This document shows positions 22,184-46,968 of a stretch of DNA of 64,000 nt, in pieces. Origin of the DNA: a plasmid. Below the pieces are notes generated by a model, which had not been told where the DNA came from, did not search any database, and saw only the letters and a list, made by a program, of their open reading frames with translations. How positions within the stretch are numbered: the stretch's first letter is position 1; each line of letters begins with the position of its first letter. Where the stretch lies: the NCBI RefSeq assembly GCF_053078305.1, contig NZ_CP166875.1; one strand, given 5' to 3'. The position numbers were made by a program, and so were the translations under genes.

Positions 22184-22635
22184 TAATACCCCGACAAGAT
22201 TAAATTCTGGTTAACGATATCATTATACAGCGAATAATATAATTATGGTTCACGTATTATTATCCGTGACTCTTTCCTGGTAACTCCCGCATAATAACTT
22301 CACTTTTCCAGTATTCCAGAAGATGATGTTTTTTCCTCGATAATAAAAATGTGCCAATATGGAAATAAGAAATCGGATTTTTTATCAGCATACGCAAATT
22401 TTCAGATAACAATGAATACAGATGTATTTTATATACACAGATAAAACCGCGCAACAGACATAAATATGACAGTAGCATGAAAAAGCAGAGAGAGACAGGG
22501 TGATACAGAAAAGTAACTATTTTTTTAGCTATAGTATTATTGGTTTTACCTATTTTCGTGATTGTGTTTCTGTATATTGGGGGTTCGCGCCCATTTCCTC
22601 TAAAAGTCTCACCTTGCTTAGGTAATTAATTGAAT

Positions 22636-23217
22636 TTATTTATAAAACGTTGCAATTTTAGCATCATTTTTTATTGTTCTTTTTAACCTGAAGTACGTCG
22701 ATCGAGAGATACCTGTTTTTTCTGTCACACTGCCCAGAGATTCTCCCTGTGATATAAGCTCCAACGCTGTAGGCGTTCGTGGATGCTTCTTCCTGCCAAA
22801 TTTTACGCCTGCGGCAAGTGCCGCTATTCTTCCGTCGTTTGTCCGCTCCAGAATACGCTCACGTTCCGCTTCAGCTACAGCAGCAAGGATTTGGATAACC
22901 ATTTTGCCCATTGTCCCTTCTGTACTGAGACCGTTCTCCAGGAACCGGATGGCGATCCCCTTTTTGTAACAGCTATCAACCACACGAATCATGTCAGCAG
23001 TGTTACGCCCCAGTCGGTCCATTTTTGTACAGATGATTACGTCGTCTTTCTCTGCACGGGCCAACAACCGCTGTAGTCCTTCCCGTTCATCAGTTGCGCC
23101 AGTCATCATATCCGTAAAAATACGATCTTCCCGTACCCCGGCATTTTTTAGCTCCGAGATTTGATGTGTTAGCTTCTGATGACTGGTTGATACCCGTGCA
23201 TACCCCAATAACGCCAT
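22636..23217 (-). CDS. tnpR: Serine recombinase / resolvase
   Basis: N-terminal catalytic serine motif (GYARVSTSHQ), C-terminal HTH; divergent from the transposase gene. Confidence 0.85.
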   Translation of the reverse strand: MALLGYARVSTSHQKLTHQISELKNAGVREDRIFTDMMTGATDEREGLQRLLARAEKDDVIICTKMDRLGRNTADMIRVVDSCYKKGIAIRFLENGLSTEGTMGKMVIQILAAVAEAERERILERTNDGRIAALAAGVKFGRKKHPRTPTALELISQGESLGSVTEKTGISRSTYFRLKRTIKNDAKIATFYK

Positions 23218-23373
23218 TTTTAGTCTCACTTATCGTTTTTGACACTGCATGGTATCATAATGTACAAAATACGATTTTTGAAACCTGCTTTTATGCTGTT
23301 TTAGACAGGTATCAGATATCTTAATATTTGATACTAGCCATATTTAACAAATATTTAGCATTTTGGTAAATGT

Positions 23374-26300
23374 ATGCAGAAGTACAAGAAAAGAATTAGT
23401 ATATTAACAAAAAGTGAAATAAATGAATTATATCAAGTCCCCTCTTTTAATCCTGTTGAAAGGGATGAGTTTTTTTCGCTGGATATCAGCCTTAAAAGAG
23501 AAATTGATAAAATAATAAATATAGAAAGCAGGGTGTATCTGATATTAATAACAGGGTATTTCAGATATAAACCTGTGATTCCTGAATTTACATTAAAAGA
23601 CGTAAAAAGGGATGTGAAATATATTATCCAGACATATTATAAAAACGAAAGTACTAATCTCAATTTAAACATACCTAAAAGTACAAAGTACCGCCTTGTT
23701 AAACGAATGCTTTCTACTCTAGGATTTGAACAACTCACCCCATCTATAAAAAATGAGTTAAGTGAACGTCTGAATGATGTTGCTACTATATGTATGGAAC
23801 CAAAATATATTTTTGATGAATTACTTGCTTTTTTAGGACAGCGGCGTATAGCTCTTCCTGGATACAGTACTGTCCAGAACCTCGTTTCAGATGCTTTAAA
23901 CTTTGAAAGGAAAAGGACAATTAATATTTTGTCAAAGAGAATTTATCCTGCCACTGCACAAAAGATTACATCCATCATCCATGATGATGGAATATTAAAT
24001 TCCATCAGGGGATATAATTATAGCACGAGAGACTTCTCAGCATCAGAAATAGAAAATGAATTAAGAACTCACAATGTGATAAGTAGTATTTACTATGAAA
24101 TAAAAGATATAATTAATTCATTAGGTATATCCCAGGGAAACATGGAGTACTATGCAACTATCGTAAAACACAGTACAACATTCAGACTTAAGCGACACCC
24201 TAAATGGCAAGGAATACTTTATTTGTGCTGCTACTTGTACTTCAGATACAGAGAGATAAATGATAAAATAATCACAGCCTTCAGATATTTAGTAAAAAAA
24301 CATAAAGACGCTTCAGTTTTGTTTGCAAAAGCTCGGGCAACAGAGGAAATAGATCTAATAAATAAAAAGCTTAAGTTTGCGAGTAAAATATTTAACTTCT
24401 TCGTTGATAGTAACATTGAAGACAGCATCCCTTTTGGATATGTTCGTGAAAAGGTTTTTTCACTTATATCGAAAGATGATATGCATCTTGTGAGTGAATT
24501 TTTTGACAAAAATAAAATCGATGTAATTGAATATCAATGGCAGTATATTGACAGCCATCACCTTAAGATCGCCAATTCAATCCGAAAGCTTTTTCTGGCT
24601 ATAGATATAGTATATGACAACGAGAAGTCTGTTATTGGCCAGCAAATTACTGCTGCCAAGGATGATCTCAGAGGAAAAGGAAAGCTGGATGCTAAGGATC
24701 TGAGGGTAATTCATCCATCCGAGAAAAATTACATTGTAAAAGAAGGAGAAATTAACACTCAACGATTCGAATTTCATATGTACAGCAGGGTATCTAACCA
24801 TCTGGAAAACGGTGTCTTTTATGCTGCGGAGAGTGAACAAAACAAGAGACTGGAAGATGATCTCATAGAACGAAGTTACTGGCATAAGAATAAATCGATT
24901 TTGATAGAGAAAACAGGCCTTGAACGACTTATCACACCAATAACGCAGACTCTTAATGAGCTGGAGAATACCTTTAGCGATAAACTGGCTCGTATAACCA
25001 TTGGAATAAACTCAGATGCTAATGAGTTTGTGAAAAAACAACCACACTCCAACAGATTACAGTGGAGTCTGGCCAGTAAAAAATGGAAGACCAGCATCGA
25101 TAATCCGATTTACAATCAGATAAAAAATATCGGAATAGTTGACGTAATGAAGTATGTAAACAATGAGACGAATTTTTTGTCTGTGTTTAATGCCATATCA
25201 TCCAGGAAAAATAATCTTGAAGCTGACTATAATGACCTTCTTGCCTGTATATTTGGTAATGGCGCAAATTATGGTGTTCACAGAATGGCATCTGCATCAG
25301 ACCGTAGTATTGGAATACTACGTGATGTGAATGACAAATTCATTCGTCCAGAAACAACAGGAATGGCCAACACAGTAATATCTGATGCAATTGCAAATCT
25401 TTCTGTATATAAATACTGGACGATAAATGAAGATTCTCCATTTGGAAGTGTTGATGGGCAGAAGCACACTTGCAGAATAAATACATTTAAAGCCCGTTAT
25501 TCTGCCAAGTATTTCAGAAAGGGGAAAGGGGTTTCTGCGATGACACTGGTATCTAATCATGTGCCATTATCAACTGTGGTAATTTCTCCAAATGAATATG
25601 AAGGTCATTTTGCATTTGACTTGTTATATAACAACACCAGTGAAATACAACCAAAGTCATTAGCGACTGACAATCATGGTATAAACAACGTTAATTTTGC
25701 GATTCTTGACATTTTTGGCTATCAGTTTTCACCACGTTATGCAAAATTCAAGAAAATATTTAATGAATTATTTGATGTTATACTGGAGAGTGATAAACTC
25801 ATTATAAAACTTAAAAAACAATTTAACTTTAAGCTCATTGAACATGAATGGGAAAACATCCAACATATTATTTGTTCTTTAAGCAGAAAAACAACCATTC
25901 AAAGTACGGTTGTTAAGAAGTTATCTAATACAAAGCGTAGCAACAAGACATTAGCAGCACTTCGGGAGTATGACCGAGTTATAAAATGCATATATGTCCT
26001 GGATTATGCTGACAATAAAACCTTAAGGCAATTTGTGCAACAAGCACTGAACAGAGGTGAAGCTTATCATCAACTAAGAAGAGCAATAGCATCAGTAAAT
26101 GGAAATCAATTTCGCGGTGGTAATGACTACCAAATAGATCAATGGAACGACTGTGCGAGGTTAATAGCTAATTGTGTAATCTATTATAATTCAGCAATAT
26201 TATCCAGGCTGGTCGAGAAATTTGAAAAAGAAAATAATAAAAAAGCGATAGATGTTCTGGCTAACTTATCCCCAGTAGCATGGAGACACATTCTCCTTGG

Positions 26301-26412
26301 AGGGAATTATTCTTTTGAAGATCAAGTTGCGATCACAAATTTGGACAGTCTTTTGGAGGGAGTAGACCCACTAAGTGATATCGGAGATATTGAGTCCGAA
26401 TATGACGGTTAA
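23374..26412 (+). CDS. tnpA: Tn3-family DDE transposase
   Basis: 1012 aa, size and organisation typical of Tn3-family TnpA; AT-rich codon usage unlike the backbone. Confidence 0.8.
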   Translation: MQKYKKRISILTKSEINELYQVPSFNPVERDEFFSLDISLKREIDKIINIESRVYLILITGYFRYKPVIPEFTLKDVKRDVKYIIQTYYKNESTNLNLNIPKSTKYRLVKRMLSTLGFEQLTPSIKNELSERLNDVATICMEPKYIFDELLAFLGQRRIALPGYSTVQNLVSDALNFERKRTINILSKRIYPATAQKITSIIHDDGILNSIRGYNYSTRDFSASEIENELRTHNVISSIYYEIKDIINSLGISQGNMEYYATIVKHSTTFRLKRHPKWQGILYLCCYLYFRYREINDKIITAFRYLVKKHKDASVLFAKARATEEIDLINKKLKFASKIFNFFVDSNIEDSIPFGYVREKVFSLISKDDMHLVSEFFDKNKIDVIEYQWQYIDSHHLKIANSIRKLFLAIDIVYDNEKSVIGQQITAAKDDLRGKGKLDAKDLRVIHPSEKNYIVKEGEINTQRFEFHMYSRVSNHLENGVFYAAESEQNKRLEDDLIERSYWHKNKSILIEKTGLERLITPITQTLNELENTFSDKLARITIGINSDANEFVKKQPHSNRLQWSLASKKWKTSIDNPIYNQIKNIGIVDVMKYVNNETNFLSVFNAISSRKNNLEADYNDLLACIFGNGANYGVHRMASASDRSIGILRDVNDKFIRPETTGMANTVISDAIANLSVYKYWTINEDSPFGSVDGQKHTCRINTFKARYSAKYFRKGKGVSAMTLVSNHVPLSTVVISPNEYEGHFAFDLLYNNTSEIQPKSLATDNHGINNVNFAILDIFGYQFSPRYAKFKKIFNELFDVILESDKLIIKLKKQFNFKLIEHEWENIQHIICSLSRKTTIQSTVVKKLSNTKRSNKTLAALREYDRVIKCIYVLDYADNKTLRQFVQQALNRGEAYHQLRRAIASVNGNQFRGGNDYQIDQWNDCARLIANCVIYYNSAILSRLVEKFEKENNKKAIDVLANLSPVAWRHILLGGNYSFEDQVAITNLDSLLEGVDPLSDIGDIESEYDG

Positions 26413-26478
26413 CAACATGATAAATAATGGTTTTTATGCTAAGAGTGAGACTTTTGGAGGAAATGGGCGCAGAACCCC

Positions 26479-27746: not shown

Positions 27747-27997
27747 TATTTTTGTAGAGCCGGAGGAAACAGACCAGACGGTTTAAATGAGCCGGTTACA
27801 AACAAATTCGCTTCATAAATTTCATAGTGCAGACCACATCCCCAATGAGCCTGCTTTTCCAGCCTGCTGATCACCACATCAGCCCGGATAACATCAAAGG
27901 GATTGCGGGAATGAATATTACGAATAAAGCCATCGGTACGTGCTGCTGACATATTTCTGCCCATCTTTAATACACCTCTGTTTTTTGCCCCCATCAT
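27746..27997 (-). CDS. Hypothetical protein, possibly 3'-truncated by the IS66 insertion
   Basis: ORF ends exactly where IS66 orfA begins; located downstream of repeat A3. Confidence 0.25.
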   Translation of the reverse strand: MMGAKNRGVLKMGRNMSAARTDGFIRNIHSRNPFDVIRADVVISRLEKQAHWGCGLHYEIYEANLFVTGSFKPSGLFPPALQK

Positions 27998-28089
27998 CTG
28001 TTGAGTTTCGGGAGCCGCGGTTTTGACGTTTTGCGGGGACCTGCCTTTTGTTCCCTCCGGTATTCACCATCACCTGTTTGAGAACCTTC

Positions 28090-28490
28090 GCCGCAAGGGG
28101 CATCACTGCCACGGCCGGAAACGACTGTCCGGGGGCAGACCGCAAAAGTTTTTGCCTGCTTTTGGGCAAAAAGTTTTGCGGGATGTGCATTTCACCCCTG
28201 GACTGGCGGAGACGGTTGTGGCTGTCTTTGCCCCCGGCGACAGGGGCTTAAACAGGTGTATGGCACCGGACACAACAACGGGCAGGGACCCGCCGCAACG
28301 ACGAAGAGCGCGTGCGCGAAACGGCGTTGCCCCTTACATCCCGGCGGCCTTTTGCCGGGATGCCAGGAGCGCAGGCCACGGCGCGACAGAGGCGGCGCGA
28401 CCGGAACGGTCGCTGCAAGCCCGGGGTTTCGCGTCAGGGATGGAAGCCCGCCAGGGCGGAGACAGCTTCGCTGGCTCCGTTCACGACAGC
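28090..28490 (-). repeat. Repeat family A copy 3 (partial, more divergent)
   Basis: Shares the ctgtccgggggcagac...gcaaaagttttt and ggcgcgaccggaacggtcgctgcaagcc blocks. Confidence 0.5.
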
Positions 28491-28856
28491 CCGCCCCGCC
28501 TGGGGGACGCCCGGAAAAGGCATAAGCAGGAGAACAACAAAACAGACAATAATCAGGGCAGCAGTAATCAGAGTCAGAACAGGAGGAAAAAGAGAATAAT
28601 CAAAGGGAAGGTGATGTGATTTCCGACAGGTCATAAACAGAGAAGGCGGGGGAAAAGAACGGGCGCCGCAGGCGCGCGTTCATCCCCGTTCCCGGAGGGA
28701 ATCGGCCTTCCTGGCAGTCTGGTTGTTCATGCTGCTGCAATGTCAGCAAGGAGAAAGGGGCCACCGGCGAACCAGCAGCCCCTTTATAAAGGCGCTTCAG
28801 TGCAGTCAGACCAGCATCAGCCCTGAAAAGGCGGGCCTGCGCCCGCCTCCAGGTTG

Positions 28857-29015
28857 CTACTTACCGGATTCGTAAGCCATGAAAGCCGCCACCTCCCTGT
28901 ATCCGTCTCTGTAACGAATCTCGCACAGCGATTTTCGTGTCAGATAAGTAAATATCAACAGTGTGAGACACACAATCAACACACACCAGACAAGAGAGCT
29001 GCGTGGTAGTTTCAT
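28857..29015 (-). CDS. hok: Hok/Gef-family type I toxin (FlmA/Hok-like)
   Basis: 52 aa [52 protein letters not shown]; adjacent to psiA. Confidence 0.85.
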
Positions 29016-29289
29016 GGCCTTCTTCTCCTTGCGCAAAGCGCGGTAAGAGGCTATCCTGATGTTGTCAGACATATGGGATGCCTCGTGGGTTAATGAAAAA
29101 TTAACTACGGGGCTATCTTCTTTCTGCCACACAACACGGTAACAAACCACCTTCACGTCATGAGGCAGAAAGCCTCAAGCGCCGGGCACATCATAGCCCA
29201 TATACCTGCACGCTGACCACACTCACTTTTCCTGAAAATAACCCGCTCATTCAGGCTGTTTACGGGTAATCTGTGTGATTGTTGCCGCA

Positions 29290-30009
29290 TCACGCCGCCT
29301 CCCGGAGTTTGTTCGGCACCATCCACCGCTCCATCTCACGGACAGCGTGACCCGCCTCCCTTGCTGCCATACCTGCCTCTGCGATGACCTGCCAGAATGG
29401 CATATCCTGCCACTGCCAGCGTTCCATCCCGGCCAGTGACGGAAAACGCTCACCCCACTGCCAGAACAGGGTTTCCAGGTCATGCTCTGCCACCCGGTCA
29501 CTCCAGCGTGCATACCAGCTTCCGACTGTTTCCGGTGAATGGAACGCCAGTTCGATTTCAGCCTGAGCGACCAGCGTCTGGTACGCACGGGCTTTCTGCT
29601 CTGCCTCCCGTGCCTGCTGGCGGCTGTACTTCTGCATGACCAGCACGGATTTATGGCGACTGCGTTCCCTGACACGGAACCGCACCGACGGGAACAACCG
29701 CTCTGCTGCATCACCGGGAAGGGGAAGGAGGCAGACCTCGCCCTGTGTTTCAATCAGCACATCGACGGCATACAGCCACTGAGAACGGTTGCCGCGCAGT
29801 TCTTCTGCGGTCAGGGACGGCATGAAAAATCGCAGGTCAGACAGCGAAATCCTGCGGCTTCCGTTCAGACAGCGGAAAAACGCCCCCGCATACGGATATT
29901 CCGCCAGCGTGTTACCCTGGTGGCGGCGTTTTTCTGTCTCCGCCACCGCCCGCCATGCGGCCTGTTGCTCTGTGCTGAGAGGAACCAGTGCCTGTGAACG
30001 TGCGCTCAT
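29290..30009 (-). CDS. psiA: Plasmid SOS inhibition protein PsiA
   Basis: 239 aa with the recognised PsiA N-terminus ([24 protein letters not shown]). Confidence 0.9.
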
Positions 30010-30443
30010 GCCTGACCTCCTTCCGCCATCAGGATATGGATGATGTCACTGACGCTGTATCCCTGTTCATCCAGTGATGCCGCCAGTGCCAGTGAATGGC
30101 TGACAGCTTCCGGTGCAAACCGCCGCTGCACCTGAACCACCGCAAACGGCTCACCACCGGCATTCACCAGAACCAGCACCCAGACCTGAGAGACATCGCC
30201 CGGTGAACATAACGCCAGGTGAAAACGTTCGTGGGCAGGCGTGAAACGGACCTGGACGGGGAAAAAGCCGCCGAACTCGCTGCCGTACTCGCCATTCATC
30301 GTCCAGTTGTCCGGCGCATCCAGTTCCCGCATCACGGCGTGTGTCAGCTCACGGCGTTCATCACTTCCGGCAGCCCGGATATCTTCATATTCCTGTGCGC
30401 TCATGGTCTGTAATACATTCAGGGTCAGTTCAGTTTTCATCAC
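30006..30443 (-). CDS. psiB: Plasmid SOS inhibition protein PsiB
   Basis: 145 aa with the recognised PsiB sequence; overlaps psiA start. Confidence 0.9.
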
Positions 30444-30494
30444 GGTATCTCCCTTGCTGCCGCCCCGTCTCCGGCGGGGCGGTGTGGTTGTTCA

Positions 30495-32513: not shown

Positions 32514-32518
32514 CTCTC

Positions 32519-32794
<276 letters not shown>

Positions 32795-32809
32795 TCACAG
32801 TCAGGCCAG

Positions 32810-33337: not shown

Positions 33338-33394
33338 GAGAACCTCCTGACTGAAAGATGTGAGATAAACCGGATACCGGAGACGGGACGTTCA

Positions 33395-35120: not shown

Positions 35121-35139
35121 GGGATTTCCTCCGTTGTTC

Positions 35140-36208: not shown

Positions 36209-36295
36209 TGATATTTCTGTGGCTATTGAGTTCTCATTGAAATGCGATATTTAAAAGTATGAAGCATATTACATTATTAACTTATTTCTCTGTTA

Positions 36296-36694: not shown

Positions 36695-36973
36695 CGCCTT
36701 CGCGTTGCTCAGTTGTCCAACCCCGGGGACGGGAAAAAGCAAGTTTTCCCCGCCCCCGGCGTTTCTGTAGTGAAAAGCGGGAAATGGAGGGAATGGTCAG
36801 TAACAGGGAATGTGGTATTATCGCGGCGGGTGTCTGAGCCTTTCTGGTTCAGGCAAGACGCAGGTACTAGAAATGCGAAGACCCCACTTGTTAATCCATT
36901 AACTCGTGAGGCCTGCATGAAGTACTTGAACACTACTGATTGTAGCCTCTTCCTTGCAGAGAGGTCAAAGTTT

Positions 36974-37123
36974 ATGACGAAATATGCCCTTATCGGGTTG
37001 CTCGCCGTGTGCGCCACGGTGTTGTGTTTTTCACTGATATTCAGGGAACGGTTATGTGAGCTGAATATTCACAGGGGAAATACAGTGGTGCAGGTAACTC
37101 TGGCCTACGAAGCACGGAAGTAA
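36974..37123 (+). CDS. srnB: Hok/Gef-family type I toxin (SrnB/PndA-like)
   Basis: 49 aa MTKYALIGLLAVCATVLCFSLIFRERLCELNIHRGNTVVQVTLAYEARK; leader ORF starts at about 36917. Confidence 0.75.
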   Translation: MTKYALIGLLAVCATVLCFSLIFRERLCELNIHRGNTVVQVTLAYEARK

Positions 37124-37406
37124 GCTGCCGGGCGGGGACGGAAGTCCCCGCTTTCCGGAAGTGTGAGGTATTTCAGGGGCAGACACCCGACATGCCAGAA
37201 ACCGCCGGTCCCGCCCGGGGCCGGCACACAGGTTAAGGCATTTCCTGTTTTTCAGCCATTTCGCAACAAAAATCACATTAAACAACAGTAATCACCGTTG
37301 ATTTGTGCGCCAACACAGATCTTCGTCACAATTCTCAAGTCGCTGATTTCAAAAAACTGTAGTATCCTCTGCGAAACGATCCCTGTTTGAGAATTGAGGA
37401 GGCGAG

Positions 37407-37667
37407 ATGTCGCAGACAGAAAATGCAGTGACTTCCTCATTGAGTCAAAAGCGGTTTGTGCGCAGAGGTAAGCCTATGACTGACTCTGAGAAACAAATGG
37501 CCGCTGTTGCAAGAAAACGTCTTACACACAAAGAGATAAAAGTTTTTGTCAAAAATCCTCTGAAAGATCTCATGGTTGAGTACTGCGAGAGAGAGGGGAT
37601 AACACAGGCTCAGTTCGTTGAGAAAATCATCAAAGATGAACTGCAGAGACTGGATATACTAAAGTAA
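37407..37667 (+). CDS. copB: IncFII replication regulator CopB (RepA2)
   Basis: 86 aa with the recognised RepA2 sequence ([23 protein letters not shown]...). Confidence 0.85.
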
Positions 37668-37754
37668 AGACTTTACTTTGTGGCGTAGCATGCTAGATTA
37701 CTGATCGTTTAAGGAATTTTGTGGCTGGCCACGCCATAAGGTGGCAGGGAACTG

Positions 37755-37850
37755 GTTCTGATGTGGATGTACAGGAGCCAGAAAAGTGAAAACCCCGATA
37801 ATCTTCTTTAACTTTGGCGAGTGAGAAAGATTACCGGGGCCATCTAAAAA
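37755..37850 (-). ncRNA. copA: CopA-type antisense RNA (replication control), inferred
   Basis: Imperfect long stem-loop (ccccgataatctt...aagattaccgggg) in the repA leader between copB and tap; position as in IncFII replicons. Confidence 0.4.
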
Positions 37851-37890
37851 CCGTATAGCCAACAATTCAGCTATGCGGGGAGTATAGTTA

Positions 37891-37965
37891 TATGCCCGGA
37901 AAAGTTCAAGACTTCTTTCTGTGCTCGCTCCTTCTGCGCATTGTAAGTGCAGGATGGTGTGACTG
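37891..37965 (+). CDS. tap: RepA leader peptide Tap (RepA6)
   Basis: 24-codon [27 protein letters not shown] whose stop overlaps the repA start. Confidence 0.7.
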
Positions 37966-38816
37966 ATCTTCAACAAACGTATTACCGCCAGGTAAAGAAC
38001 CCGAATCCGGTGTTTACACCCCGTAAAGGTGCCGGAACGCTGAAGTTCTGCGAAAAACTGATGGAAAAGGCGGTGGGCTTCACCTCCCGTTTTGATTTCG
38101 CCATTCATGTGGCGCATGCCCGTTCGCGTGGTCTGCGTCGACGCATGCCACCGGTGCTGCGTCGACGGGCTATTGATGCGCTGCTGCAGGGGCTGTGTTT
38201 CCATTATGACCCGCTGGCCAACCGCGTCCAGTGTTCCATTACCACACTGGCCATTGAGTGCGGACTGGCGACAGAGTCCGGTGCAGGAAAACTCTCCATC
38301 ACCCGGGCCACCCGGGCCCTGACGTTCCTGTCAGAGCTGGGACTGATTACCTACCAGACGGAATATGATCCGCTTATCGGGTGCTACATTCCGACCGATA
38401 TCACGTTCACACCGGCGCTGTTTGCCGCCCTTGATGTGTCTGAGGATGCAGTGGCAGCTGCGCGCCGCAGCCGTGTGGTATGGGAAAACAGACAGCGCAA
38501 AAAGCAGGGGCTGGATACCCTGGGTATGGATGAGCTGATAGCGAAAGCCTGGCGTTTTGTCCGTGAGCGTTTCCGCAGTTACCAGACAGAGCTTAAGTCC
38601 CACGGCATGAAACGTGCCCGTGCGCGCCGCGATGCAGGCAGAACCCGCCAGGACATTGTCACCCTGGTGAAACGGCAGCTGACGCGTGAAATCGCGGAAG
38701 GGCGTTTCCGGGGAAGCCTGGAGGCCGTGAAGCGCGAAATCGACCGTCGTGTGAAGGAACGCATGATAATGTCGCGTAACAACAACTACACACGGCTGGC
38801 CACTGCCTCCCCCTGA
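37959..38816 (+). CDS. repA: IncFII replication initiator RepA1
   Basis: 285 aa from the start overlapping the tap stop; recognised RepA1 sequence. Confidence 0.9.
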
Positions 38817-38829
38817 GTTTTACCTCATC

Positions 38830-39250
38830 TGAATAATCCGGCCTGCGCCGGAGGCATCTGCACGCCTGAAGCCTGTCAGCGAACAAAAAAACAGCACCAC
38901 ATACAAAAAACAATCTCATCATCCCGCTTCTGGTGCATCCGGCCCCCCTGTTTTCGATACAAAACATGCCTCACTGACGGGGAATTTTGCTTATCCACAT
39001 TTAACTGCAAGGGACTTCCCCATAAAGTTACAACCGTTCATGTCATAAAGCGCCAGCCGCCAGCCTTACAGGGTGCAATGTATCTTTTAAACACCTGTTT
39101 ATATCTCCTTTAAACCACTTAACTACATTCATTTAAAAAGAAAACCTATTCACTGCCTGTCCTGTGGACAGACAGATATGCACCTCCCACCGCAAGCGGC
39201 GGGCCCCGACCGGAGCCACTTTAGTTACAACACTCAGATACAACCACCAG
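38830..39250. other. Vegetative replication origin region (oriR) with DnaA box
   Basis: DnaA box ttatccaca at about 38987, AT-rich stretch downstream of repA1. Confidence 0.55.
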
Positions 39251-39384
39251 AAAAACCCAAGTCCCGCGCAGAACTGAAACCACAAAGCCCCTCCTCATAA
39301 CTGAAAAGCGGCCCCGCCCCGGCCCAAAGGGCCGGAACAGAGTCGCTTTTAATTATGAATGTTGTAACTATACTCCATCATTGC

Positions 39385-39665
39385 TGTCAGTATTCTGGCT
39401 GGAAGTCCTCAGTACACGCTCGTAAGCGGCCCTCACGGCCCGCTAACGCGGAGATACGCCCCGACTTCGGGTAAACCCTCGTCGGGACCACTCCGACCGC
39501 GCACATAAGCTCTATCATAGCTGACAGCGGGTATGGCTTTGCAGGGTGGGGATGGGTAAGGTGAAATCTATCAATCAGTACCGGCTTACGCCGGGCTTCG
39601 GCGGTTTTACTCCGGTATCACATGTAACCACAGCGTGCCGCCTTACATGCGCTGACGCGCATAAA
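39385..39665 (+). repeat. Repeat family D copy 1 (about 280 bp, upstream of a toxin-antitoxin cassette)
   Basis: Near-identical to 41273-41548 and partially to 49862-49950; contains GC hairpins including a terminator-like cgccgggcttcggcggtttta. Confidence 0.6.
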
Positions 39666-39751
39666 CAACAAGTTGCTACATTAGCTTACAGGTTAATTCA
39701 CCTTGCATAAGATTAGCATATAGGTTAATGTTTATCGAAATGGGAGGTCAT

Positions 39752-40081
39752 ATGTTTAGCGTTGTTTATCACCCGGAAGCCAGGGAAGAAGCCACAGCAT
39801 TACCCATAAAAATCAGGGTGAAGTTTGACCGTCTCATCAGCAAACTGGAATATGACGCCCGATTACTGCGGGAACCGGATACAAAGCCCCTGGGGGATGG
39901 ACTTTTTGAGATCCGCACGATGGGGACGGACATAGCCAGAGGCATCTGGGTATACCACAAAGGCAATACCATCATCATGCTCCGGGTTTTCATCAAGAAG
40001 TCTCAGAAAACGCCAGCAAAAGAAATCGATCTCGCCAAAAAGCGGTTAGCGGAGGTACTTAATGAAACTGGTAAGCCATAA
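39752..40081 (+). CDS. higB: RelE/ParE-superfamily toxin, HigB-like
   Basis: Toxin-first arrangement with overlapping HTH antitoxin; RBS gggagg. Confidence 0.55.
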   Translation: MFSVVYHPEAREEATALPIKIRVKFDRLISKLEYDARLLREPDTKPLGDGLFEIRTMGTDIARGIWVYHKGNTIIMLRVFIKKSQKTPAKEIDLAKKRLAEVLNETGKP

Positions 40082-40343
40082 AGAACTGCATAACGAGTGG
40101 ATGCAGGACGACGAATATCGCGCTGCATGGCAGGAAGAAGAACGTAAGGAGAAACTCAGGGAGTTGCTTGCAGAATGGCGTAAGCATGACAATTTGACAA
40201 AAGCGCAGGTTGCTGAACGCATGGGGGTTACTCCTCCTGTTATTTCCCGCCTGGAAAACAACATCACTAAAGCCAGCATCGACACCCTGACTCGCTATGC
40301 CCATGCGTGCGGTATCAAAAAACCTGTTATTACGCTGTACTGA
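40062..40343 (+). CDS. higA: HTH (XRE-type) antitoxin, HigA-like
   Basis: HTH segment (LTKAQVAERMGVTPPVISRLENN); overlaps toxin stop. Confidence 0.55.
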   Translation: MKLVSHKELHNEWMQDDEYRAAWQEEERKEKLRELLAEWRKHDNLTKAQVAERMGVTPPVISRLENNITKASIDTLTRYAHACGIKKPVITLY

Positions 40344-40531
40344 ACTCTGCTCTATGGCTGCCAGTTCTGGAGAAATCAGTAACTAAATTTTAATTAGCTA
40401 CGTTATGGTAAATCTGCCTGATGTGTCGATTTCTCTGAAAGTAATTCGGCTTCTGTGGGCTGCGTTTGCCTTGTGCCACCTGAATGTAATCACTATGATT
40501 AAATATGATTAACAACTAATCGGATATACAA

Positions 40532-40810
40532 ATGAAAAACAATACCGCACAGGCAACAAAAGTAATTACCGCGCATGTGCCATTACCTATGGCTGATAAA
40601 GTCGACCAGATGGCCGCCAGACTGGAACGCTCCCGGGGCTGGGTTATCAAACAGGCACTTTCTGCATGGCTTGCCCAGGAGGAGGAGCGTAATCGCCTGA
40701 CGCTGGAAGCCCTGGACGATGTGATATCCGGACAGATTATCGACCATCAGGCTGTACAGGCCTGGGCAGACAGCCTCAGTACTGACAATCCGTTACCGGT
40801 TCCACGCTGA
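40532..40810 (+). CDS. Ribbon-helix-helix antitoxin (ParD/CopG-like)
   Basis: 92 aa; stop overlaps start of the downstream toxin. Confidence 0.55.
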   Translation: MKNNTAQATKVITAHVPLPMADKVDQMAARLERSRGWVIKQALSAWLAQEEERNRLTLEALDDVISGQIIDHQAVQAWADSLSTDNPLPVPR

Positions 40811-41085
40811 TGGAACTGAAGTGGACCAGTAAGGCGCTTTCTGATTTGGCGCGGTTATATGATTTTCTGGTGCTGGCCAGTAAACCTGCCGCCGCCAGAA
40901 TGGTACAGTCCCTGATACAGGCACCGGTCATTCTGTTAACTCATCCACGTATGGGAGAACAGTTGTTTCAGTTTGAACCCAGGGAGGTCAGACGGATTTT
41001 TGCTGGCGAGTACGAAATCCGTTACGAACTTAATGGGCTGCGTTTGGGAAACGTACAATATTGTACGGTTGCGCTATTGCGGTAG
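40810..41085 (+). CDS. ParE/RelE-family toxin
   Basis: 91 aa, coupled to the upstream RHH antitoxin. Confidence 0.55.
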   Translation: MELKWTSKALSDLARLYDFLVLASKPAAARMVQSLIQAPVILLTHPRMGEQLFQFEPREVRRIFAGEYEIRYELNGLRLGNVQYCTVALLR

Positions 41086-41272
41086 GGTGTACTCCAACGC
41101 TATACGGTATTTGGCAGACCTTTAGGGACATGAGATAACCTAAATGCAATAAGAGAAAAGCAATAACTTAAAGGCGATAGCTGATCACGATGAATCAATC
41201 AGTTACTTATCCGCATCGATTAAAAAATGCTCCTAACGTACAATAATTCCGTTTCCCAAACCGACCCCTCAG

Positions 41273-41548
41273 TGTTCTGGCTGGAAGTCCTCAGTACACG
41301 CTCGTAAGCGGCCCTGACGGCCCGCTAACGCGGAGATACGCCCCGACTTCGGGTAAACCCTCGTCGGGACCACTCCGACCGCGCACAGAAGCTCTCTCAT
41401 GGCTGAAAGCGGGTATGGCTTAACAGGGTGGGAATGGGATAGGCGAAATCTATCAATCAGTACCGGCTTACGCCGGGCTTCGGCGGTTTTACTCCGGTAT
41501 CACATGTAACCACAGCGTACCGCCTTCCATGCCGCTGGCGCGGCATAT
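41273..41548 (+). repeat. Repeat family D copy 2
   Basis: Near-identical to D1. Confidence 0.6.
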
Positions 41549-41600
41549 CATGGTGACGATATCTGAATCGTTATATACTGTGTATATACGTGGTAATGAC

Positions 41601-41700
41601 GAGGTGATAAATGGCACAGGTTAATATGAGTTTAAGAATCGACGCTGAACTGAAGGATGCTTTTATGGGGTCAGCCTGGAATTCGGAAAATAAACCACGT
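41601..41700 (+). pseudogene. RelB/DinJ-like antitoxin N-terminal fragment, truncated by a miniature element
   Basis: MAQVNMSLRIDAELKDAF then runs straight into the GGGG terminus of the Tn3-type inverted repeat. Confidence 0.5.
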
Positions 41701-41856
41701 TAAGACTATTTTTTAGCCAAATGACTGTCAGGAATCCGGACGGTCGGAACATTTCGTACAGCCTTTACGTTCAGTGAGTTAGCTGGCCTGGATGTAACCA
41801 CTCGTTCAACTCAATTCTCTTAGCGTGGGAAAATTTCCGTTTTCCAAGCGGACCCC
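41667..41856 (+). mobile_element. Tn3-derived miniature element (TIME-like, 190 bp)
   Basis: Left IR GGGGTCAGCCTGGAATTCGGAAAATAAACCACGTTAAG (41667-41704) and right IR, reverse complement GGGGTCCGCTTGGAAAACGGAAATTTTCCCACGCTAAG (41819-41856); no coding capacity. Confidence 0.65.
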
Positions 41857-41875
41857 TAGAAGAAGGGAAGCGATA

Positions 41876-42292
41876 TCAAGCCCAGGGATTAATAATTGAT
41901 ACTCCGGTTAATTCAAAATCACCAACATTTCTGGTTACAACCGTCATCCCATGTACCAGCGCCGTTGCTGCGATCAATGCGTCTCGTTCACTGCGCCTGT
42001 CGGGAACATGTAAACGAGAACAACGTAATGCAACCGCAGTATCTACAGGAAGTATCTTATCAGAAAACGCTGGTAACACATGCTGATCCATCCAAGAACG
42101 TAGCATAATCCCTTGTCGCATATCTCGACGTTCAACTTGTAATATTCCCTGTTCAAGTTCCATTATGGAAATAACAGAAATAAAGAAATCTGCCGCATCT
42201 GTATGCAATACCCATTTTGCAACATTATTATCTATACGTCCTGTCCGAGCCTTCCGTAGCTCAGAGATAACATTAGTATCAAGAATATACAC
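41876..42292 (-). CDS. vapC: PIN-domain toxin VapC
   Basis: 138 aa starting MYILDTNVISELRK; PIN acidic residues. Confidence 0.8.
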   Translation of the reverse strand: MYILDTNVISELRKARTGRIDNNVAKWVLHTDAADFFISVISIMELEQGILQVERRDMRQGIMLRSWMDQHVLPAFSDKILPVDTAVALRCSRLHVPDRRSERDALIAATALVHGMTVVTRNVGDFELTGVSIINPWA

Positions 42293-42546
42293 TATAAAAA
42301 CTCCGCAGGTTTTAAACTAACCGTAATACGAGGCGGTTCAAATTCAACTGCATCAGCATCGGGCATCGCCAGAATGTCAATGAGAGTTCGTCGTTGTTGC
42401 GTCAATTTTCGGTATTCTTCGATACTAAGAAGTACATGTGCGGTTTTACCCCGATCAGTAATAAATACTGGACCATAATTCGTGGCGCGTTTGGCTCGAG
42501 TTACATCTTGATTAAGTTCCCGACTGGATAGGGTTGTAATCTTCAT
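42292..42546 (-). CDS. vapB: Antitoxin VapB (Phd/YefM-type)
   Basis: Start refined to MKITTLSSREL; overlaps vapC start. Confidence 0.7.
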   Translation of the reverse strand: MKITTLSSRELNQDVTRAKRATNYGPVFITDRGKTAHVLLSIEEYRKLTQQRRTLIDILAMPDADAVEFEPPRITVSLKPAEFL

Positions 42547-42657
42547 GCTGTTGCCTTTTGATGTATATAGGTACGTTACTACATTGTAGGGCATGAAATA
42601 GTACAATGCAAGAAATGTACTTGATTAGGGGTAGTCTTCGCCGCTTGTTGCTGTCAG

Positions 42658-42692
42658 ATATTAATGCTAATGTATGCATACATTAGCATTAA
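42658..42692. promoter_or_regulatory. Perfect 34-bp palindrome attaatgctaatgtatgcatacattagcattaat, copy 1
   Basis: Directly visible; identical copy at 47242-47275. Confidence 0.6.
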
Positions 42693-42729
42693 TGAGGGAT
42701 GATATGTGAGAGACAAAACCAGGGAGGCC

Positions 42730-43068
42730 ATGCGGTTTTTTTTAGGCGGCAGGTGTTACACGGCTGAAAACCTTGAAAAGGATTATCTGGCTGAAGTTGC
42801 TAATTACAGTGACGACCGCTGGGAAGCACCCCAACGCGCCGCACGTCTGGCAGCTGCCGTAAAGCGTTACAAGACATCAGAAATGCTGCGCTTTATTTTT
42901 GCTACCACTGCCTACGATCCCGATCCAGATTTAACCCCGCTGACTGTGAGACGTTTGTGCAAGGCATTGTTCGGCAGAACAGGAAGCCAGTGGCTGGTTG
43001 TTGAAGTTTTTGGGGAGAAGGGGCGTCAGCACCGCAGCGCGGACAGCAATCCGGAGATGGTGGAAAAA
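42730..43068 (+). pseudogene. Hypothetical gene (about 160 aa when rejoined), 5' part, interrupted by Tn3-family copy 2
   Basis: ATG with RBS agggagg; frame continues across the transposon into 46969-47214. Confidence 0.5.
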
Positions 43069-43125
43069 GGGGGTTCGCGCCCATTTCCTCTAAAAGTCTC
43101 ACCTTGCTTAGGTAATTAATTGAAT

Positions 43126-43707
43126 TTATTTATAAAACGTTGCAATTTTAGCATCATTTTTTATTGTTCTTTTTAACCTGAAGTACGTCGATCGAGAGAT
43201 ACCTGTTTTTTCTGTCACACTGCCCAGAGATTCTCCCTGTGATATAAGCTCCAACGCTGTAGGCGTTCGTGGATGCTTCTTCCTGCCAAATTTTACGCCT
43301 GCGGCAAGTGCCGCTATTCTTCCGTCGTTTGTCCGCTCCAGAATACGCTCACGTTCCGCTTCAGCTACAGCAGCAAGGATTTGGATAACCATTTTGCCCA
43401 TTGTCCCTTCTGTACTGAGACCGTTCTCCAGGAACCGGATGGCGATCCCCTTTTTGTAACAGCTATCAACCACACGAATCATGTCAGCAGTGTTACGCCC
43501 CAGTCGGTCCATTTTTGTACAGATGATTACGTCGTCTTTCTCTGCACGGGCCAACAACCGCTGTAGTCCTTCCCGTTCATCAGTTGCGCCAGTCATCATA
43601 TCCGTAAAAATACGATCTTCCCGTACCCCGGCATTTTTTAGCTCCGAGATTTGATGTGTTAGCTTCTGATGACTGGTTGATACCCGTGCATACCCCAATA
43701 ACGCCAT
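43126..43707 (-). CDS. tnpR: Serine recombinase / resolvase (copy 2)
   Basis: Identical to 22636-23217. Confidence 0.85.
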   Translation of the reverse strand: MALLGYARVSTSHQKLTHQISELKNAGVREDRIFTDMMTGATDEREGLQRLLARAEKDDVIICTKMDRLGRNTADMIRVVDSCYKKGIAIRFLENGLSTEGTMGKMVIQILAAVAEAERERILERTNDGRIAALAAGVKFGRKKHPRTPTALELISQGESLGSVTEKTGISRSTYFRLKRTIKNDAKIATFYK

Positions 43708-43863
43708 TTTTAGTCTCACTTATCGTTTTTGACACTGCATGGTATCATAATGTACAAAATACGATTTTTGAAACCTGCTTTTATGCTGTTTTAGACAGGT
43801 ATCAGATATCTTAATATTTGATACTAGCCATATTTAACAAATATTTAGCATTTTGGTAAATGT

Positions 43864-46800
43864 ATGCAGAAGTACAAGAAAAGAATTAGTATATTAACAA
43901 AAAGTGAAATAAATGAATTATATCAAGTCCCCTCTTTTAATCCTGTTGAAAGGGATGAGTTTTTTTCGCTGGATATCAGCCTTAAAAGAGAAATTGATAA
44001 AATAATAAATATAGAAAGCAGGGTGTATCTGATATTAATAACAGGGTATTTCAGATATAAACCTGTGATTCCTGAATTTACATTAAAAGACGTAAAAAGG
44101 GATGTGAAATATATTATCCAGACATATTATAAAAACGAAAGTACTAATCTCAATTTAAACATACCTAAAAGTACAAAGTACCGCCTTGTTAAACGAATGC
44201 TTTCTACTCTAGGATTTGAACAACTCACCCCATCTATAAAAAATGAGTTAAGTGAACGTCTGAATGATGTTGCTACTATATGTATGGAACCAAAATATAT
44301 TTTTGATGAATTACTTGCTTTTTTAGGACAGCGGCGTATAGCTCTTCCTGGATACAGTACTGTCCAGAACCTCGTTTCAGATGCTTTAAACTTTGAAAGG
44401 AAAAGGACAATTAATATTTTGTCAAAGAGAATTTATCCTGCCACTGCACAAAAGATTACATCCATCATCCATGATGATGGAATATTAAATTCCATCAGGG
44501 GATATAATTATAGCACGAGAGACTTCTCAGCATCAGAAATAGAAAATGAATTAAGAACTCACAATGTGATAAGTAGTATTTACTATGAAATAAAAGATAT
44601 AATTAATTCATTAGGTATATCCCAGGGAAACATGGAGTACTATGCAACTATCGTAAAACACAGTACAACATTCAGACTTAAGCGACACCCTAAATGGCAA
44701 GGAATACTTTATTTGTGCTGCTACTTGTACTTCAGATACAGAGAGATAAATGATAAAATAATCACAGCCTTCAGATATTTAGTAAAAAAACATAAAGACG
44801 CTTCAGTTTTGTTTGCAAAAGCTCGGGCAACAGAGGAAATAGATCTAATAAATAAAAAGCTTAAGTTTGCGAGTAAAATATTTAACTTCTTCGTTGATAG
44901 TAACATTGAAGACAGCATCCCTTTTGGATATGTTCGTGAAAAGGTTTTTTCACTTATATCGAAAGATGATATGCATCTTGTGAGTGAATTTTTTGACAAA
45001 AATAAAATCGATGTAATTGAATATCAATGGCAGTATATTGACAGCCATCACCTTAAGATCGCCAATTCAATCCGAAAGCTTTTTCTGGCTATAGATATAG
45101 TATATGACAACGAGAAGTCTGTTATTGGCCAGCAAATTACTGCTGCCAAGGATGATCTCAGAGGAAAAGGAAAGCTGGATGCTAAGGATCTGAGGGTAAT
45201 TCATCCATCCGAGAAAAATTACATTGTAAAAGAAGGAGAAATTAACACTCAACGATTCGAATTTCATATGTACAGCAGGGTATCTAACCATCTGGAAAAC
45301 GGTGTCTTTTATGCTGCGGAGAGTGAACAAAACAAGAGACTGGAAGATGATCTCATAGAACGAAGTTACTGGCATAAGAATAAATCGATTTTGATAGAGA
45401 AAACAGGCCTTGAACGACTTATCACACCAATAACGCAGACTCTTAATGAGCTGGAGAATACCTTTAGCGATAAACTGGCTCGTATAACCATTGGAATAAA
45501 CTCAGATGCTAATGAGTTTGTGAAAAAACAACCACACTCCAACAGATTACAGTGGAGTCTGGCCAGTAAAAAATGGAAGACCAGCATCGATAATCCGATT
45601 TACAATCAGATAAAAAATATCGGAATAGTTGACGTAATGAAGTATGTAAACAATGAGACGAATTTTTTGTCTGTGTTTAATGCCATATCATCCAGGAAAA
45701 ATAATCTTGAAGCTGACTATAATGACCTTCTTGCCTGTATATTTGGTAATGGCGCAAATTATGGTGTTCACAGAATGGCATCTGCATCAGACCGTAGTAT
45801 TGGAATACTACGTGATGTGAATGACAAATTCATTCGTCCAGAAACAACAGGAATGGCCAACACAGTAATATCTGATGCAATTGCAAATCTTTCTGTATAT
45901 AAATACTGGACGATAAATGAAGATTCTCCATTTGGAAGTGTTGATGGGCAGAAGCACACTTGCAGAATAAATACATTTAAAGCCCGTTATTCTGCCAAGT
46001 ATTTCAGAAAGGGGAAAGGGGTTTCTGCGATGACACTGGTATCTAATCATGTGCCATTATCAACTGTGGTAATTTCTCCAAATGAATATGAAGGTCATTT
46101 TGCATTTGACTTGTTATATAACAACACCAGTGAAATACAACCAAAGTCATTAGCGACTGACAATCATGGTATAAACAACGTTAATTTTGCGATTCTTGAC
46201 ATTTTTGGCTATCAGTTTTCACCACGTTATGCAAAATTCAAGAAAATATTTAATGAATTATTTGATGTTATACTGGAGAGTGATAAACTCATTATAAAAC
46301 TTAAAAAACAATTTAACTTTAAGCTCATTGAACATGAATGGGAAAACATCCAACATATTATTTGTTCTTTAAGCAGAAAAACAACCATTCAAAGTACGGT
46401 TGTTAAGAAGTTATCTAATACAAAGCGTAGCAACAAGACATTAGCAGCACTTCGGGAGTATGACCGAGTTATAAAATGCATATATGTCCTGGATTATGCT
46501 GACAATAAAACCTTAAGGCAATTTGTGCAACAAGCACTGAACAGAGGTGAAGCTTATCATCAACTAAGAAGAGCAATAGCATCAGTAAATGGAAATCAAT
46601 TTCGCGGTGGTAATGACTACCAAATAGATCAATGGAACGACTGTGCGAGGTTAATAGCTAATTGTGTAATCTATTATAATTCAGCAATATTATCCAGGCT
46701 GGTCGAGAAATTTGAAAAAGAAAATAATAAAAAAGCGATAGATGTTCTGGCTAACTTATCCCCAGTAGCATGGAGACACATTCTCCTTGGAGGGAATTAT

Positions 46801-46902
46801 TCTTTTGAAGATCAAGTTGCGATCACAAATTTGGACAGTCTTTTGGAGGGAGTAGACCCACTAAGTGATATCGGAGATATTGAGTCCGAATATGACGGTT
46901 AA
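43864..46902 (+). CDS. tnpA: Tn3-family DDE transposase (copy 2)
   Basis: Identical to 23374-26412. Confidence 0.8.
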   Translation: MQKYKKRISILTKSEINELYQVPSFNPVERDEFFSLDISLKREIDKIINIESRVYLILITGYFRYKPVIPEFTLKDVKRDVKYIIQTYYKNESTNLNLNIPKSTKYRLVKRMLSTLGFEQLTPSIKNELSERLNDVATICMEPKYIFDELLAFLGQRRIALPGYSTVQNLVSDALNFERKRTINILSKRIYPATAQKITSIIHDDGILNSIRGYNYSTRDFSASEIENELRTHNVISSIYYEIKDIINSLGISQGNMEYYATIVKHSTTFRLKRHPKWQGILYLCCYLYFRYREINDKIITAFRYLVKKHKDASVLFAKARATEEIDLINKKLKFASKIFNFFVDSNIEDSIPFGYVREKVFSLISKDDMHLVSEFFDKNKIDVIEYQWQYIDSHHLKIANSIRKLFLAIDIVYDNEKSVIGQQITAAKDDLRGKGKLDAKDLRVIHPSEKNYIVKEGEINTQRFEFHMYSRVSNHLENGVFYAAESEQNKRLEDDLIERSYWHKNKSILIEKTGLERLITPITQTLNELENTFSDKLARITIGINSDANEFVKKQPHSNRLQWSLASKKWKTSIDNPIYNQIKNIGIVDVMKYVNNETNFLSVFNAISSRKNNLEADYNDLLACIFGNGANYGVHRMASASDRSIGILRDVNDKFIRPETTGMANTVISDAIANLSVYKYWTINEDSPFGSVDGQKHTCRINTFKARYSAKYFRKGKGVSAMTLVSNHVPLSTVVISPNEYEGHFAFDLLYNNTSEIQPKSLATDNHGINNVNFAILDIFGYQFSPRYAKFKKIFNELFDVILESDKLIIKLKKQFNFKLIEHEWENIQHIICSLSRKTTIQSTVVKKLSNTKRSNKTLAALREYDRVIKCIYVLDYADNKTLRQFVQQALNRGEAYHQLRRAIASVNGNQFRGGNDYQIDQWNDCARLIANCVIYYNSAILSRLVEKFEKENNKKAIDVLANLSPVAWRHILLGGNYSFEDQVAITNLDSLLEGVDPLSDIGDIESEYDG

Positions 46903-46968
46903 CAACATGATAAATAATGGTTTTTATGCTAAGAGTGAGACTTTTGGAGGAAATGGGCGCAGAACCCC

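Follow-up and report, generated by a model that had tools for sequence, protein, structure and literature searches.

Two direct copies of a cryptic Tn3-family transposon around an IncFII-type replicon in a patchwork IncK/IncF plasmid

The element and its surroundings

The window analysed here, a 64,000-nucleotide stretch of a plasmid (NCBI RefSeq assembly GCF_053078305.1, contig NZ_CP166875.1), contains an exact repeat of 3,900 bp on the same strand (22579-26478 = 43069-46968, 0 mismatches), the two copies of which are separated by 16,590 bp. Beyond the ends of the repeat, identity between the surroundings of copy 1 and copy 2 drops to ~22%. A first-pass annotation of the window had described two identical Tn3-family elements of ~3.9 kb in direct orientation around a 16.6 kb interval with hok, psiAB, ssb, nuc and an IncFII-type replicon, and each of these descriptions agrees with our comparison; the interval carries hok, psiA, psiB, a ParB-like gene, ssb, nuc, copB and an IncFII-type repA. 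The features are as follows (strand in brackets where assigned).

20034..22578 (-), IncK2/Z-type backbone to the left of copy 1, carrying UvrD-like helicase and ProQ/FinO-like genes plus an AT-rich spacer (from the pDW54_2 match and ORF families)
22579..26478 (+), transposon copy 1: 3,900-bp Tn3-family unit transposon without passenger genes (exact repeat; ends backed by 5-bp target duplications in other records)
22636..23217 (-), tnpR of copy 1: 193-aa serine resolvase
23218..23373, divergent tnpR-tnpA spacer: presumed res region, placed by analogy with Tn3/gamma-delta
23374..26412 (+), tnpA of copy 1: Tn3-family transposase, 1012 aa
26479..27800 (-), partial ISCro1 (IS66 family): retains tnpA and tnpB, with tnpC truncated after its first ~75 codons by the IRR of copy 1
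27801..35338 (-), F-type leading-region block: 100% to JPQG01000008.1
28857-29015, hok, in the leading-region block
29290-30009, psiA, in the same block
30006-30440, psiB, in the same block
30495-32453, parB-like gene, in the same block
32810-33337, ssb, in the same block
34695-35120, antirestriction gene, in the same block
35338..35339, abrupt joint without shared homology: JPQG01000008.1-like meets JPQG01000009.1-like DNA
35339..43068 (+), IncFII/FIC replicon block, including toxin-antitoxin pairs: 100% to JPQG01000009.1
35747-36208, nuc, in the IncFII/FIC block
37476-37667, copB, in the same block
37959-38816, repA (IncFII-type), in the same block
41876-42606, vapBC-like genes, in the same block
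42706-43068, 5' part of a hypothetical gene, in the same block
42943..43068 (+), left copy of a 126-bp overlap: pSTEC17_183-a-type allele
43069..46968 (+), transposon copy 2: same sequence as copy 1
43126-43707 (-), tnpR of copy 2
43864-46902 (+), tnpA of copy 2
46969..47094 (+), right copy of the 126-bp overlap: CP045714.1-type allele
46969..47299 (+), right flank of copy 2: 3' part of the hypothetical gene whose 5' part is 42706-43068

The resolvase aligns over its full length with that of gamma-delta (1gdt; E 3.4e-51, 49% identity) and has the catalytic Ser, and the transposase scores 604.9 bits against NF033527 (cutoff 500) over profile positions 3-954 of 954 and matches the transposase of Tn4430 (E 3e-37). 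The termini are imperfect inverted repeats of ~38 bp that begin with GGGG (the IRL/IRR alignment spans ~40 bp with two 1-nt indels), and within the window the repeat core is confined to the four transposon ends, with one occurrence at each. The element has a GC content of 36.3% against 49.1% for the window. Within the 156-bp tnpR-tnpA spacer a single 11-bp inverted pair was detected (23309-23334, 4-nt gap), and, judged from sequence, the resolution systems of both copies look intact.

In at least eight other genomes, this 3,900-bp sequence is bounded by clean 5-bp duplications (AACAT, TATTA, GAATA, TATCT, AGATA, TATTT, TTATT, GTATA), with one apparent 6-bp duplication in a further record (L020); we therefore accept the 3,900-bp boundaries and regard the transposon as active. 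The cleanly inserted copies elsewhere share a tnpR and spacer identical to those of the window copies, and the element probably resolves normally in those genomes. The exact transposase is found in 594 blocks of a public assembly index, indicating that the element is much commoner than plasmid databases suggest, and in the ten contigs inspected the transposase differs by 0-2 bases. In all records seen, PGAP gives the element just the generic label "Tn3 family transposase". A scan of species-representative genomes with the inverted-repeat pattern gave matches in Serratia and Mixta only and was uninformative.

The four junctions and the joint at 35338/35339

Neither copy is flanked by a 5-bp duplication in the window (exact flank comparison: TATATT and TGTATC to the left and right of copy 1, GAAAAA and ACTGTG for copy 2), as the first-pass annotation had also found. 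To the left of copy 1, the sequence matches the IncK2/Z plasmid pDW54_2 at 99.85% identity as far as the transposon junction. Where the window has copy 1, intact relatives continue with exo, yacAB and the IncK repA, and the empty site is present in ten other IncK/B/O/Z-type contigs with the order repA-yacAB-exo-spacer-ProQ. On the right, copy 1 adjoins 1,322 bp that are 100% identical to an intact ISCro1, in keeping with the truncated IS66 element reported earlier; the other ~1.4 kb of ISCro1 are nowhere within the 64-kb window. Copy 1 is the exact meeting point of IncK2/Z-type backbone and F-type DNA, and the IncK replicon expected just past it is missing. It is in this broad sense that the earlier proposal of a replicon fusion holds. 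An exact-protein look-up of the ORF across the transposon/ISCro1 junction found nothing on record, and look-ups of common backbone proteins returned generic contexts only, that of ProQ being useful for the empty site alone.

Copy 2 lies in a different setting, with F-type DNA of one gene on both sides. Its flanks include a 126-bp direct repeat (42943-43068 and 46969-47094, 1 mismatch), which the first-pass annotation missed. A 126-bp target duplication was considered and rejected, given that the two flanks are different alleles and that the sole mismatch sorts by allele. The plasmid pSTEC17_183-a is 98.8% identical to the left flank and runs uninterrupted across the transposon site, and the right flank is 99.4% identical to CP045714.1 (3565-3235); past the 126-bp overlap, the right flank is ~87% identical to pSTEC17_183-a versus 99-100% to CP045714.1. 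We conclude from the allele-specific mismatch that recombination between two alleles of a single gene produced the copy 2 junction.

The interval between the copies is itself chimeric at 35338/35339, a second feature missed at first pass. Positions 20495-35338 of the window are identical to JPQG01000008.1 (14,844 bp, 0 mismatches), a stretch that takes in copy 1 with its two junctions, and positions 35339-56902 are identical to JPQG01000009.1 (21,564 bp), including copy 2, both of its junctions and the 126-bp overlap. Both contigs, 151 kb (JPQG01000008.1) and 105 kb (JPQG01000009.1) in size, come from one genome, E. coli 48 (JPQG00000000), the source of which describes SMRT sequencing for five newer strains only and does not state the platform used for strain 48. 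The IncFII/FIC replicon block is additionally 98.5% identical to the repA region of CP045714.1. At the joint, each E. coli 48 contig runs on with a different sequence that is normal for its context by comparison with F and IncK references.

No microhomology is present at 35338/35339, and the joint is absent from PLSDB, 5,426 complete E. coli genomes and JGI metagenomes; nothing is on record for the exact protein of the ORF that spans it. An origin through the transposon is ruled out by the lack of a transposon end at this position, and inspection by eye found no convincing Xer/dif-like or oriT-like site. The window as a whole is likewise in neither PLSDB nor the complete E. coli genomes. This window is the sole evidence that the joint is real, and the joint is the weak point in trusting the structure of the plasmid.

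Origin of the arrangement

Since E. coli 48 has each copy, complete with its two flanks, on a contig of its own, we interpret the arrangement as an ordinary plasmid patchwork rather than a frozen transposition event, that is, as a side effect of the union of two plasmids that each carried the transposon. The two copies are probably resident copies of an active transposon, contributed by two parent plasmids with already rearranged flanks and brought together at a joint in which the transposon had no part. One parent would have been a hybrid of IncK backbone and F leading region in which the transposon itself formed the seam (IncK spacer, transposon, ISCro1 interior); adjacent deletion mediated by the transposon, or recombination between two of its copies, may have removed one half of ISCro1 together with the IncK replicon. 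The other would have been an IncFII/FIC plasmid with the transposon downstream of repA, inside a small hypothetical gene, its junction plausibly produced by recombination between two alleles whose transposon insertions lay 126 bp from each other. Illegitimate joining of the two types of DNA at 35338/35339 would then have placed direct repeats of the transposon around the IncFII replicon. Any such fusion or segment exchange requires a second joint, which falls outside the window. The predicted precursor junctions are in no record found, so the histories of the four transposon junctions stay unproven. Intramolecular transposition was rejected as a source of the two copies, as for Tn3-family elements it yields inverted copies or a deletion rather than direct copies (scheme in PMC5142620).

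The most serious competing explanation, which we consider less likely although it deserves real weight, is that two separate plasmids with one copy each were misjoined at 35338/35339 during assembly, such that the copies lie in trans and bracket nothing. Such a misjoin would explain why the sequences left and right of the joint each match a different contig of a single assembly at 100% identity, and why the joint is unique among all the databases searched. The cis form is also unexpected because an intact tnpR and res in direct repeat should resolve quickly, and the apparently intact resolution functions would thus disfavor a stable cis arrangement. However, assemblers usually misjoin at repeats and the partners at this joint share no sequence, and single isolates often have rearrangement joints of their own. 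The converse error, in which one real copy was written twice by the assembler, would account for the perfect identity of the copies but is the least credible of the alternatives, given that the copies have four distinct unique flanks and that the E. coli 48 assembly independently confirms both junction pairs at 100% identity.

Two explanations attribute the arrangement to transposition. According to one, the transposon moved between replicons and the copies mark the junctions of donor and target in an unresolved replicative cointegrate, a possibility raised at first pass that the direct orientation and identity of the copies and the position of copy 1 at the IncK/F boundary might seem to favor. 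We consider it very improbable. The missing target duplications alone cannot separate a cointegrate from later recombination, as this case shows. The reciprocal flanks differ (TGTAT to the right of copy 1 against AAAAA to the left of copy 2, and ATATT to the left of copy 1 against ACTGT to the right of copy 2), and remain different when the left boundary is moved by one G. Moreover, the F-type DNA on both sides of copy 2 belongs to one gene, the interval switches source without homology at 35338/35339 and so is not one contiguous partner replicon, the copies with their flanks occur separately in E. coli 48, and the resolvase is intact.

According to the other, the two copies and the DNA between them make up a 24.4-kb composite transposon, with the outer IRL and IRR as its ends, which reached its current location in a single move; this is slightly less probable still. 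Such movement, which had been suggested as a capacity of the bracketed segment, is possible in principle, since the inverted repeats at the outer ends are a pair in the correct orientation, but nothing supports it: the outer flanks (ATATT and ACTGT) show no duplication, and the outer junctions already exist separately on two E. coli 48 contigs and hence pre-date the joining. In PLSDB and the complete E. coli genomes, the transposon with the flanks of the window is seen only as single copies, and the absence of a 24.4-kb unit at other loci is weak evidence against it. Comparison with related plasmids, as the first-pass annotation had recommended, recovered single-copy and empty-site relatives but no relative with both copies in cis, and the pair is in no other record found. 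Our preferred interpretation hence remains the union of two plasmids that each already carried the transposon.

Predicted behavior and relation to known elements

If the two copies are indeed in cis, the 20,490-bp unit of one copy and the 16.6 kb interval would be a substrate for deletion by TnpR (res x res) or RecA. As both resolution systems look intact, we predict excision of a 20.49-kb circle, which would free a self-replicating IncFII mini-circle and leave the order IncK spacer, transposon, 3' end of the hypothetical gene; resolvase-driven release of this 20.5-kb circle is a testable prediction. A more ambitious reading is that the cis form constitutes a resolvase-gated fission module that frees a 20.49-kb IncFII mini-plasmid (replicon, toxin-antitoxin systems, hok, psiAB and ssb) from an IncK/IncF hybrid lacking the IncK replicon, and that the element prefers the replicon-proximal block of yacAB, exo and the hypothetical gene in IncF/I-complex plasmids. 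We regard this combination as a long shot; if it were true, the element would repeatedly seed replicon swaps between IncF and I-complex plasmids.

The element resembles Tn1000 (gamma-delta) and Tn3 in its divergent tnpR and tnpA with a presumed res in the spacer, its resolvase (49% identical to that of gamma-delta over the full length), its transposase of ~1000 aa, its GGGG-initiated inverted repeats and its AT-rich 5-bp target duplications, whereas it differs in being only 3.9 kb, in its lack of a passenger gene, in its GC content of 36% and in having its own inverted-repeat sequence. Cryptic elements of the Tn5403 type, which are small, share with it a minimal, passenger-free content (tnpA and tnpR only), a location on enterobacterial plasmids and an involvement in rearrangement. 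Tn5403 itself has been cited in such a role (PMC5142620); PGAP labels Tn5403 by name but not the present element, which is thus a different member.

He et al. (2016, PMC5142620) used target duplications to follow how replicative transposons and homologous recombination reorganize plasmids, and there, as here, transposon copies without duplications mark adjacent deletions or exchanges and plasmids become mosaics. Two copies of one Tn3-family member per replicon are an exception, which fits transposition immunity (PMC5142620). The window does have two identical copies in cis, but they would have met through a joint formed without the transposon. In classical Tn3/gamma-delta cointegrates, where donor and target are fused, directly repeated copies likewise stand between DNA of unlike plasmid types; the present arrangement departs from them in its absent reciprocal duplications, in an interval that is not a single replicon and in its intact resolvase. 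The significance of the locus lies in a cryptic, passenger-free Tn3-family element that forms the seam where IncK and IncF DNA meet in hybrid E. coli plasmids, and its practical value is modest. The closest relatives found came from a roe deer and from reindeer, and the other plasmids compared from humans, cattle and crows.

Identity and distribution of the element

Repeat search and direct comparison both find two copies of a Tn3-family element in direct orientation, as the first-pass annotation had described; the two match at every base across exactly 3,900 bp, in the same strand orientation, and direct comparison finds identity at background level just beyond both.

Features of the two copies
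22579–26478: copy 1
43069–46968: copy 2
tnpR, one per copy, − strand: 193-aa serine resolvase; whole-length alignment to gamma-delta resolvase (E 3.4e-51, 49% identity)
Spacer between tnpR and the transposase gene, each copy: 156 bp
Transposase gene, one per copy, + strand: 1012 aa; NCBIfam Tn3-family model, 604.9 bits (cutoff 500)
Element ends: imperfect inverted repeats with a GGGG start

The resolvase also aligns to Tn3 resolvase, and the transposase matches the Tn4430 transposase structure. Within the window, the inverted-repeat core is confined to the four ends of the two copies, and the GC content of the element is 36.3% versus 49.1% for the window. All records seen are annotated as "Tn3 family transposase" with no more specific name, and the element is apparently an unnamed member of the Tn3/gamma-delta group.

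Other records carry the same 3,900 bp, with zero to two differences, between clean 5-bp AT-rich duplications (AACAT in CP045715.1; TATTA in an E. albertii IncHI1B plasmid; GAATA, TATCT, AGATA, TATTT, TTATT and GTATA in six other contigs, several chromosomal-looking), which fix the element's boundaries. In these cleanly inserted copies tnpR and the spacer are identical to those of the window, and the few differences are synonymous and lie in tnpA. Such insertions show a normal, active transposon, in which transposition followed by resolution works. Full copies number about ten in PLSDB and four in 5,426 complete E. coli genomes, and the exact transposase protein accounts for 594 indexed blocks in a large assembly collection. 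One otherwise clean insertion (compared record L020, 9206–13105) has an apparent 6-bp duplication, AAAAGA, and not one of 5 bp.

The position of element junctions in the replicon-proximal yacAB–exo–hypothetical-gene block varies between plasmids (window 42616–43068 and 46969–47299; compared records L002, L005 and L013): in CP045714.1 coordinates they fall at 3440, 3565, 3704, 4275, 4774 and ~5267, with another in the IncK spacer beside exo. This scatter points to a hot spot in the region or to a single old insertion with nested rearrangements afterwards. An internally deleted remnant of the element (bases 1–593 and 3859–3900) lies at 4002–4631 of pAA from E. coli O104:H4 (L013); in O104:H4 pAA plasmids and many ~75-kb relatives it adjoins a truncated 3′–5′ exonuclease gene.

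Flanks of the two copies

Flanking sequences in the window
Copy 1: left flank ...CTGTATATT; right flank TGTATCTGCC...
Copy 2: left flank ...GGTGGAAAAA; right flank ACTGTGAGAC...

Comparison of these flanks bears out the earlier observation that neither copy has a matching 5-bp target duplication. Nor do the flanks show the reciprocal pattern that marks a cointegrate: the right flank of copy 1 differs from the left flank of copy 2, and the left flank of copy 1 from the right flank of copy 2.

To the left of copy 1, identity to the IncK2/Z plasmid pDW54_2 stands at 99.85% up to the junction itself, which lies in the spacer from a ProQ/FinO-like gene to the 3′–5′ exonuclease gene. Since the order repA–yacAB–exo–spacer–ProQ–UvrD is uninterrupted in ten other contigs, the loss of the IncK replicon expected next begins exactly at the transposon end. 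To the right lie 1,322 bp of ISCro1 interior (tnpA, tnpB and the first ~75 codons of tnpC; 100% to an intact copy), the truncated IS66-type element noted at first pass; the rest of ISCro1 is, as then stated, not in the window. Elsewhere, the IncK-type leading region lacks at 13897–14248 the ssb–parB–psiB–psiA block of pDW54_2 (12.3–18.9 kb), and this gap coincides with a member of a ~200–350-bp repeat family (others at 9.3–9.6, 12.7–13.2, 33.4–33.9 and 35.1–35.3 kb of the window), which we take to be, probably, leading-region single-strand promoter repeats.

The 126 bp before copy 2 (42943–43068) recur directly after it (46969–47094) with one mismatch, and both repeats fall in a single small hypothetical gene that lies downstream of the IncFII-type replicon; on CP045714.1 the left flank ends at 3440 and the right flank starts at 3565. 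The left flank (41460–43068) is 98.8% identical to pSTEC17_183-a, which is uninterrupted through the site, and upstream of the overlap just 93.4% identical to CP045714.1; the whole right flank (46969–47276) is just 86.7% identical to pSTEC17_183-a versus 99–100% to CP045714.1. The single mismatch follows suit, its left copy being the pSTEC17_183-a allele and its right copy the CP045714.1 allele. This sorting places copy 2 at a recombinant joint and rules out a giant 126-bp target duplication. The transposon would have inserted in one allele and again 126 bp away in a second, and a crossover within the element would have joined them.

A 121-bp inverted repeat (41737–41857 and 47299–47419; 97%) encloses vapBC-like genes, a hypothetical gene and copy 2, and the enclosed block is reversed in orientation relative to CP045714.1. 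Downstream of repA lies a 264-bp direct repeat (39387–39650 and 41269–41532; 95%), copies of which adjoin several toxin–antitoxin cassettes in related plasmids.

Origin of the direct-repeat arrangement

Exact-protein look-ups identified the genome of E. coli 48 (JPQG00000000), a strain from a roe deer, in which the two copies lie on two different contigs: window 20495–35338 (14,844 bp), with copy 1 and its IncK spacer and ISCro1 junctions, is 100.000% identical to JPQG01000008.1 (151 kb), and 35339–56902 (21,564 bp), with copy 2, its two junctions and the overlap, is 100.000% identical to JPQG01000009.1 (105 kb). Both copies and all four junctions are thereby independently confirmed, excluding false duplication of one copy; in the paper on E. 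coli 48, SMRT sequencing is stated for five newer strains and not explicitly for strain 48.

The 16,590-bp interval between the copies accordingly derives from two sources, 8,860 bp from one and 7,730 bp from the other, with an abrupt switch at 35338/35339 where the partners share no homology, so that the "bracketed" segment is no unit. Past this point JPQG01000008.1 runs on into an F leading region of the common kind (antirestriction, methylase, DUF1281, umuDC, parM), and before it JPQG01000009.1 carries the finO region that normally lies upstream of nuc; hence it is the joint in the window that is derived. Thousands of matches in PLSDB and complete E. coli genomes end at 35338 or begin at 35339; none spans the joint, and a metagenome scan gave no match to it.

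The joint stems from illegitimate recombination or else from chimeric assembly. The latter, the main rival, we consider unlikely. In its favour, the joint is unique to the window, and intact resolvase systems arranged in direct repeat would be expected to remove the interval; against it, mis-joins are usually made at repeats, and this site has no repeat. An unresolved cointegrate failed direct test, as the reciprocal duplications are absent and the interval is chimeric; composite transposition and in-situ duplication also failed. Of the first-pass interpretation, replicon fusion or mosaicism thus stands, whereas an unresolved transposition product and a mobile composite do not.

The sequence comparisons fit a patchwork in which the direct-repeat arrangement would be a by-product: two transposon-bearing plasmids of one lineage would have contributed segments now fused at an illegitimate joint in which the transposon played no part. 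Tn3-family elements typically transpose replicatively, delete adjacent DNA and undergo homologous exchange between copies (scheme and examples in PMC5142620). From this standard behaviour we infer that, at copy 1, adjacent deletion or exchange between transposons would have eliminated half of ISCro1 along with the IncK replicon, and that inter-allelic exchange would have taken place at copy 2. Events of this kind are well known.

Should the arrangement prove real, recombination between the copies by TnpR or RecA is expected to release a 20,490-bp circle predicted to carry copB and repA (the sole replicon seen in the window, which covers only part of the plasmid), hok, psiAB, ssb and toxin–antitoxin genes. 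In the remainder, the IncK spacer would then be joined through one Tn copy to the gene 3′ end.

The end of the window

A different Tn3-family element lies at 60600–64000 (resolvase ORF 60780–61412; transposase running past the window end), inserted at the site of a DUF6404 gene in relatives. Relative to an E. coli 117 contig (MPGS01000004.1) collinear with the window end, 61834–62012 are ~180 extra bases. On that contig (8928–13105), the region matching 56189–64000 gives way after ~1.3 kb to a further copy of the 3.9-kb element, with a 277-bp partial duplicate of the IRL end in front of it; a third copy may therefore lie just past the window end.
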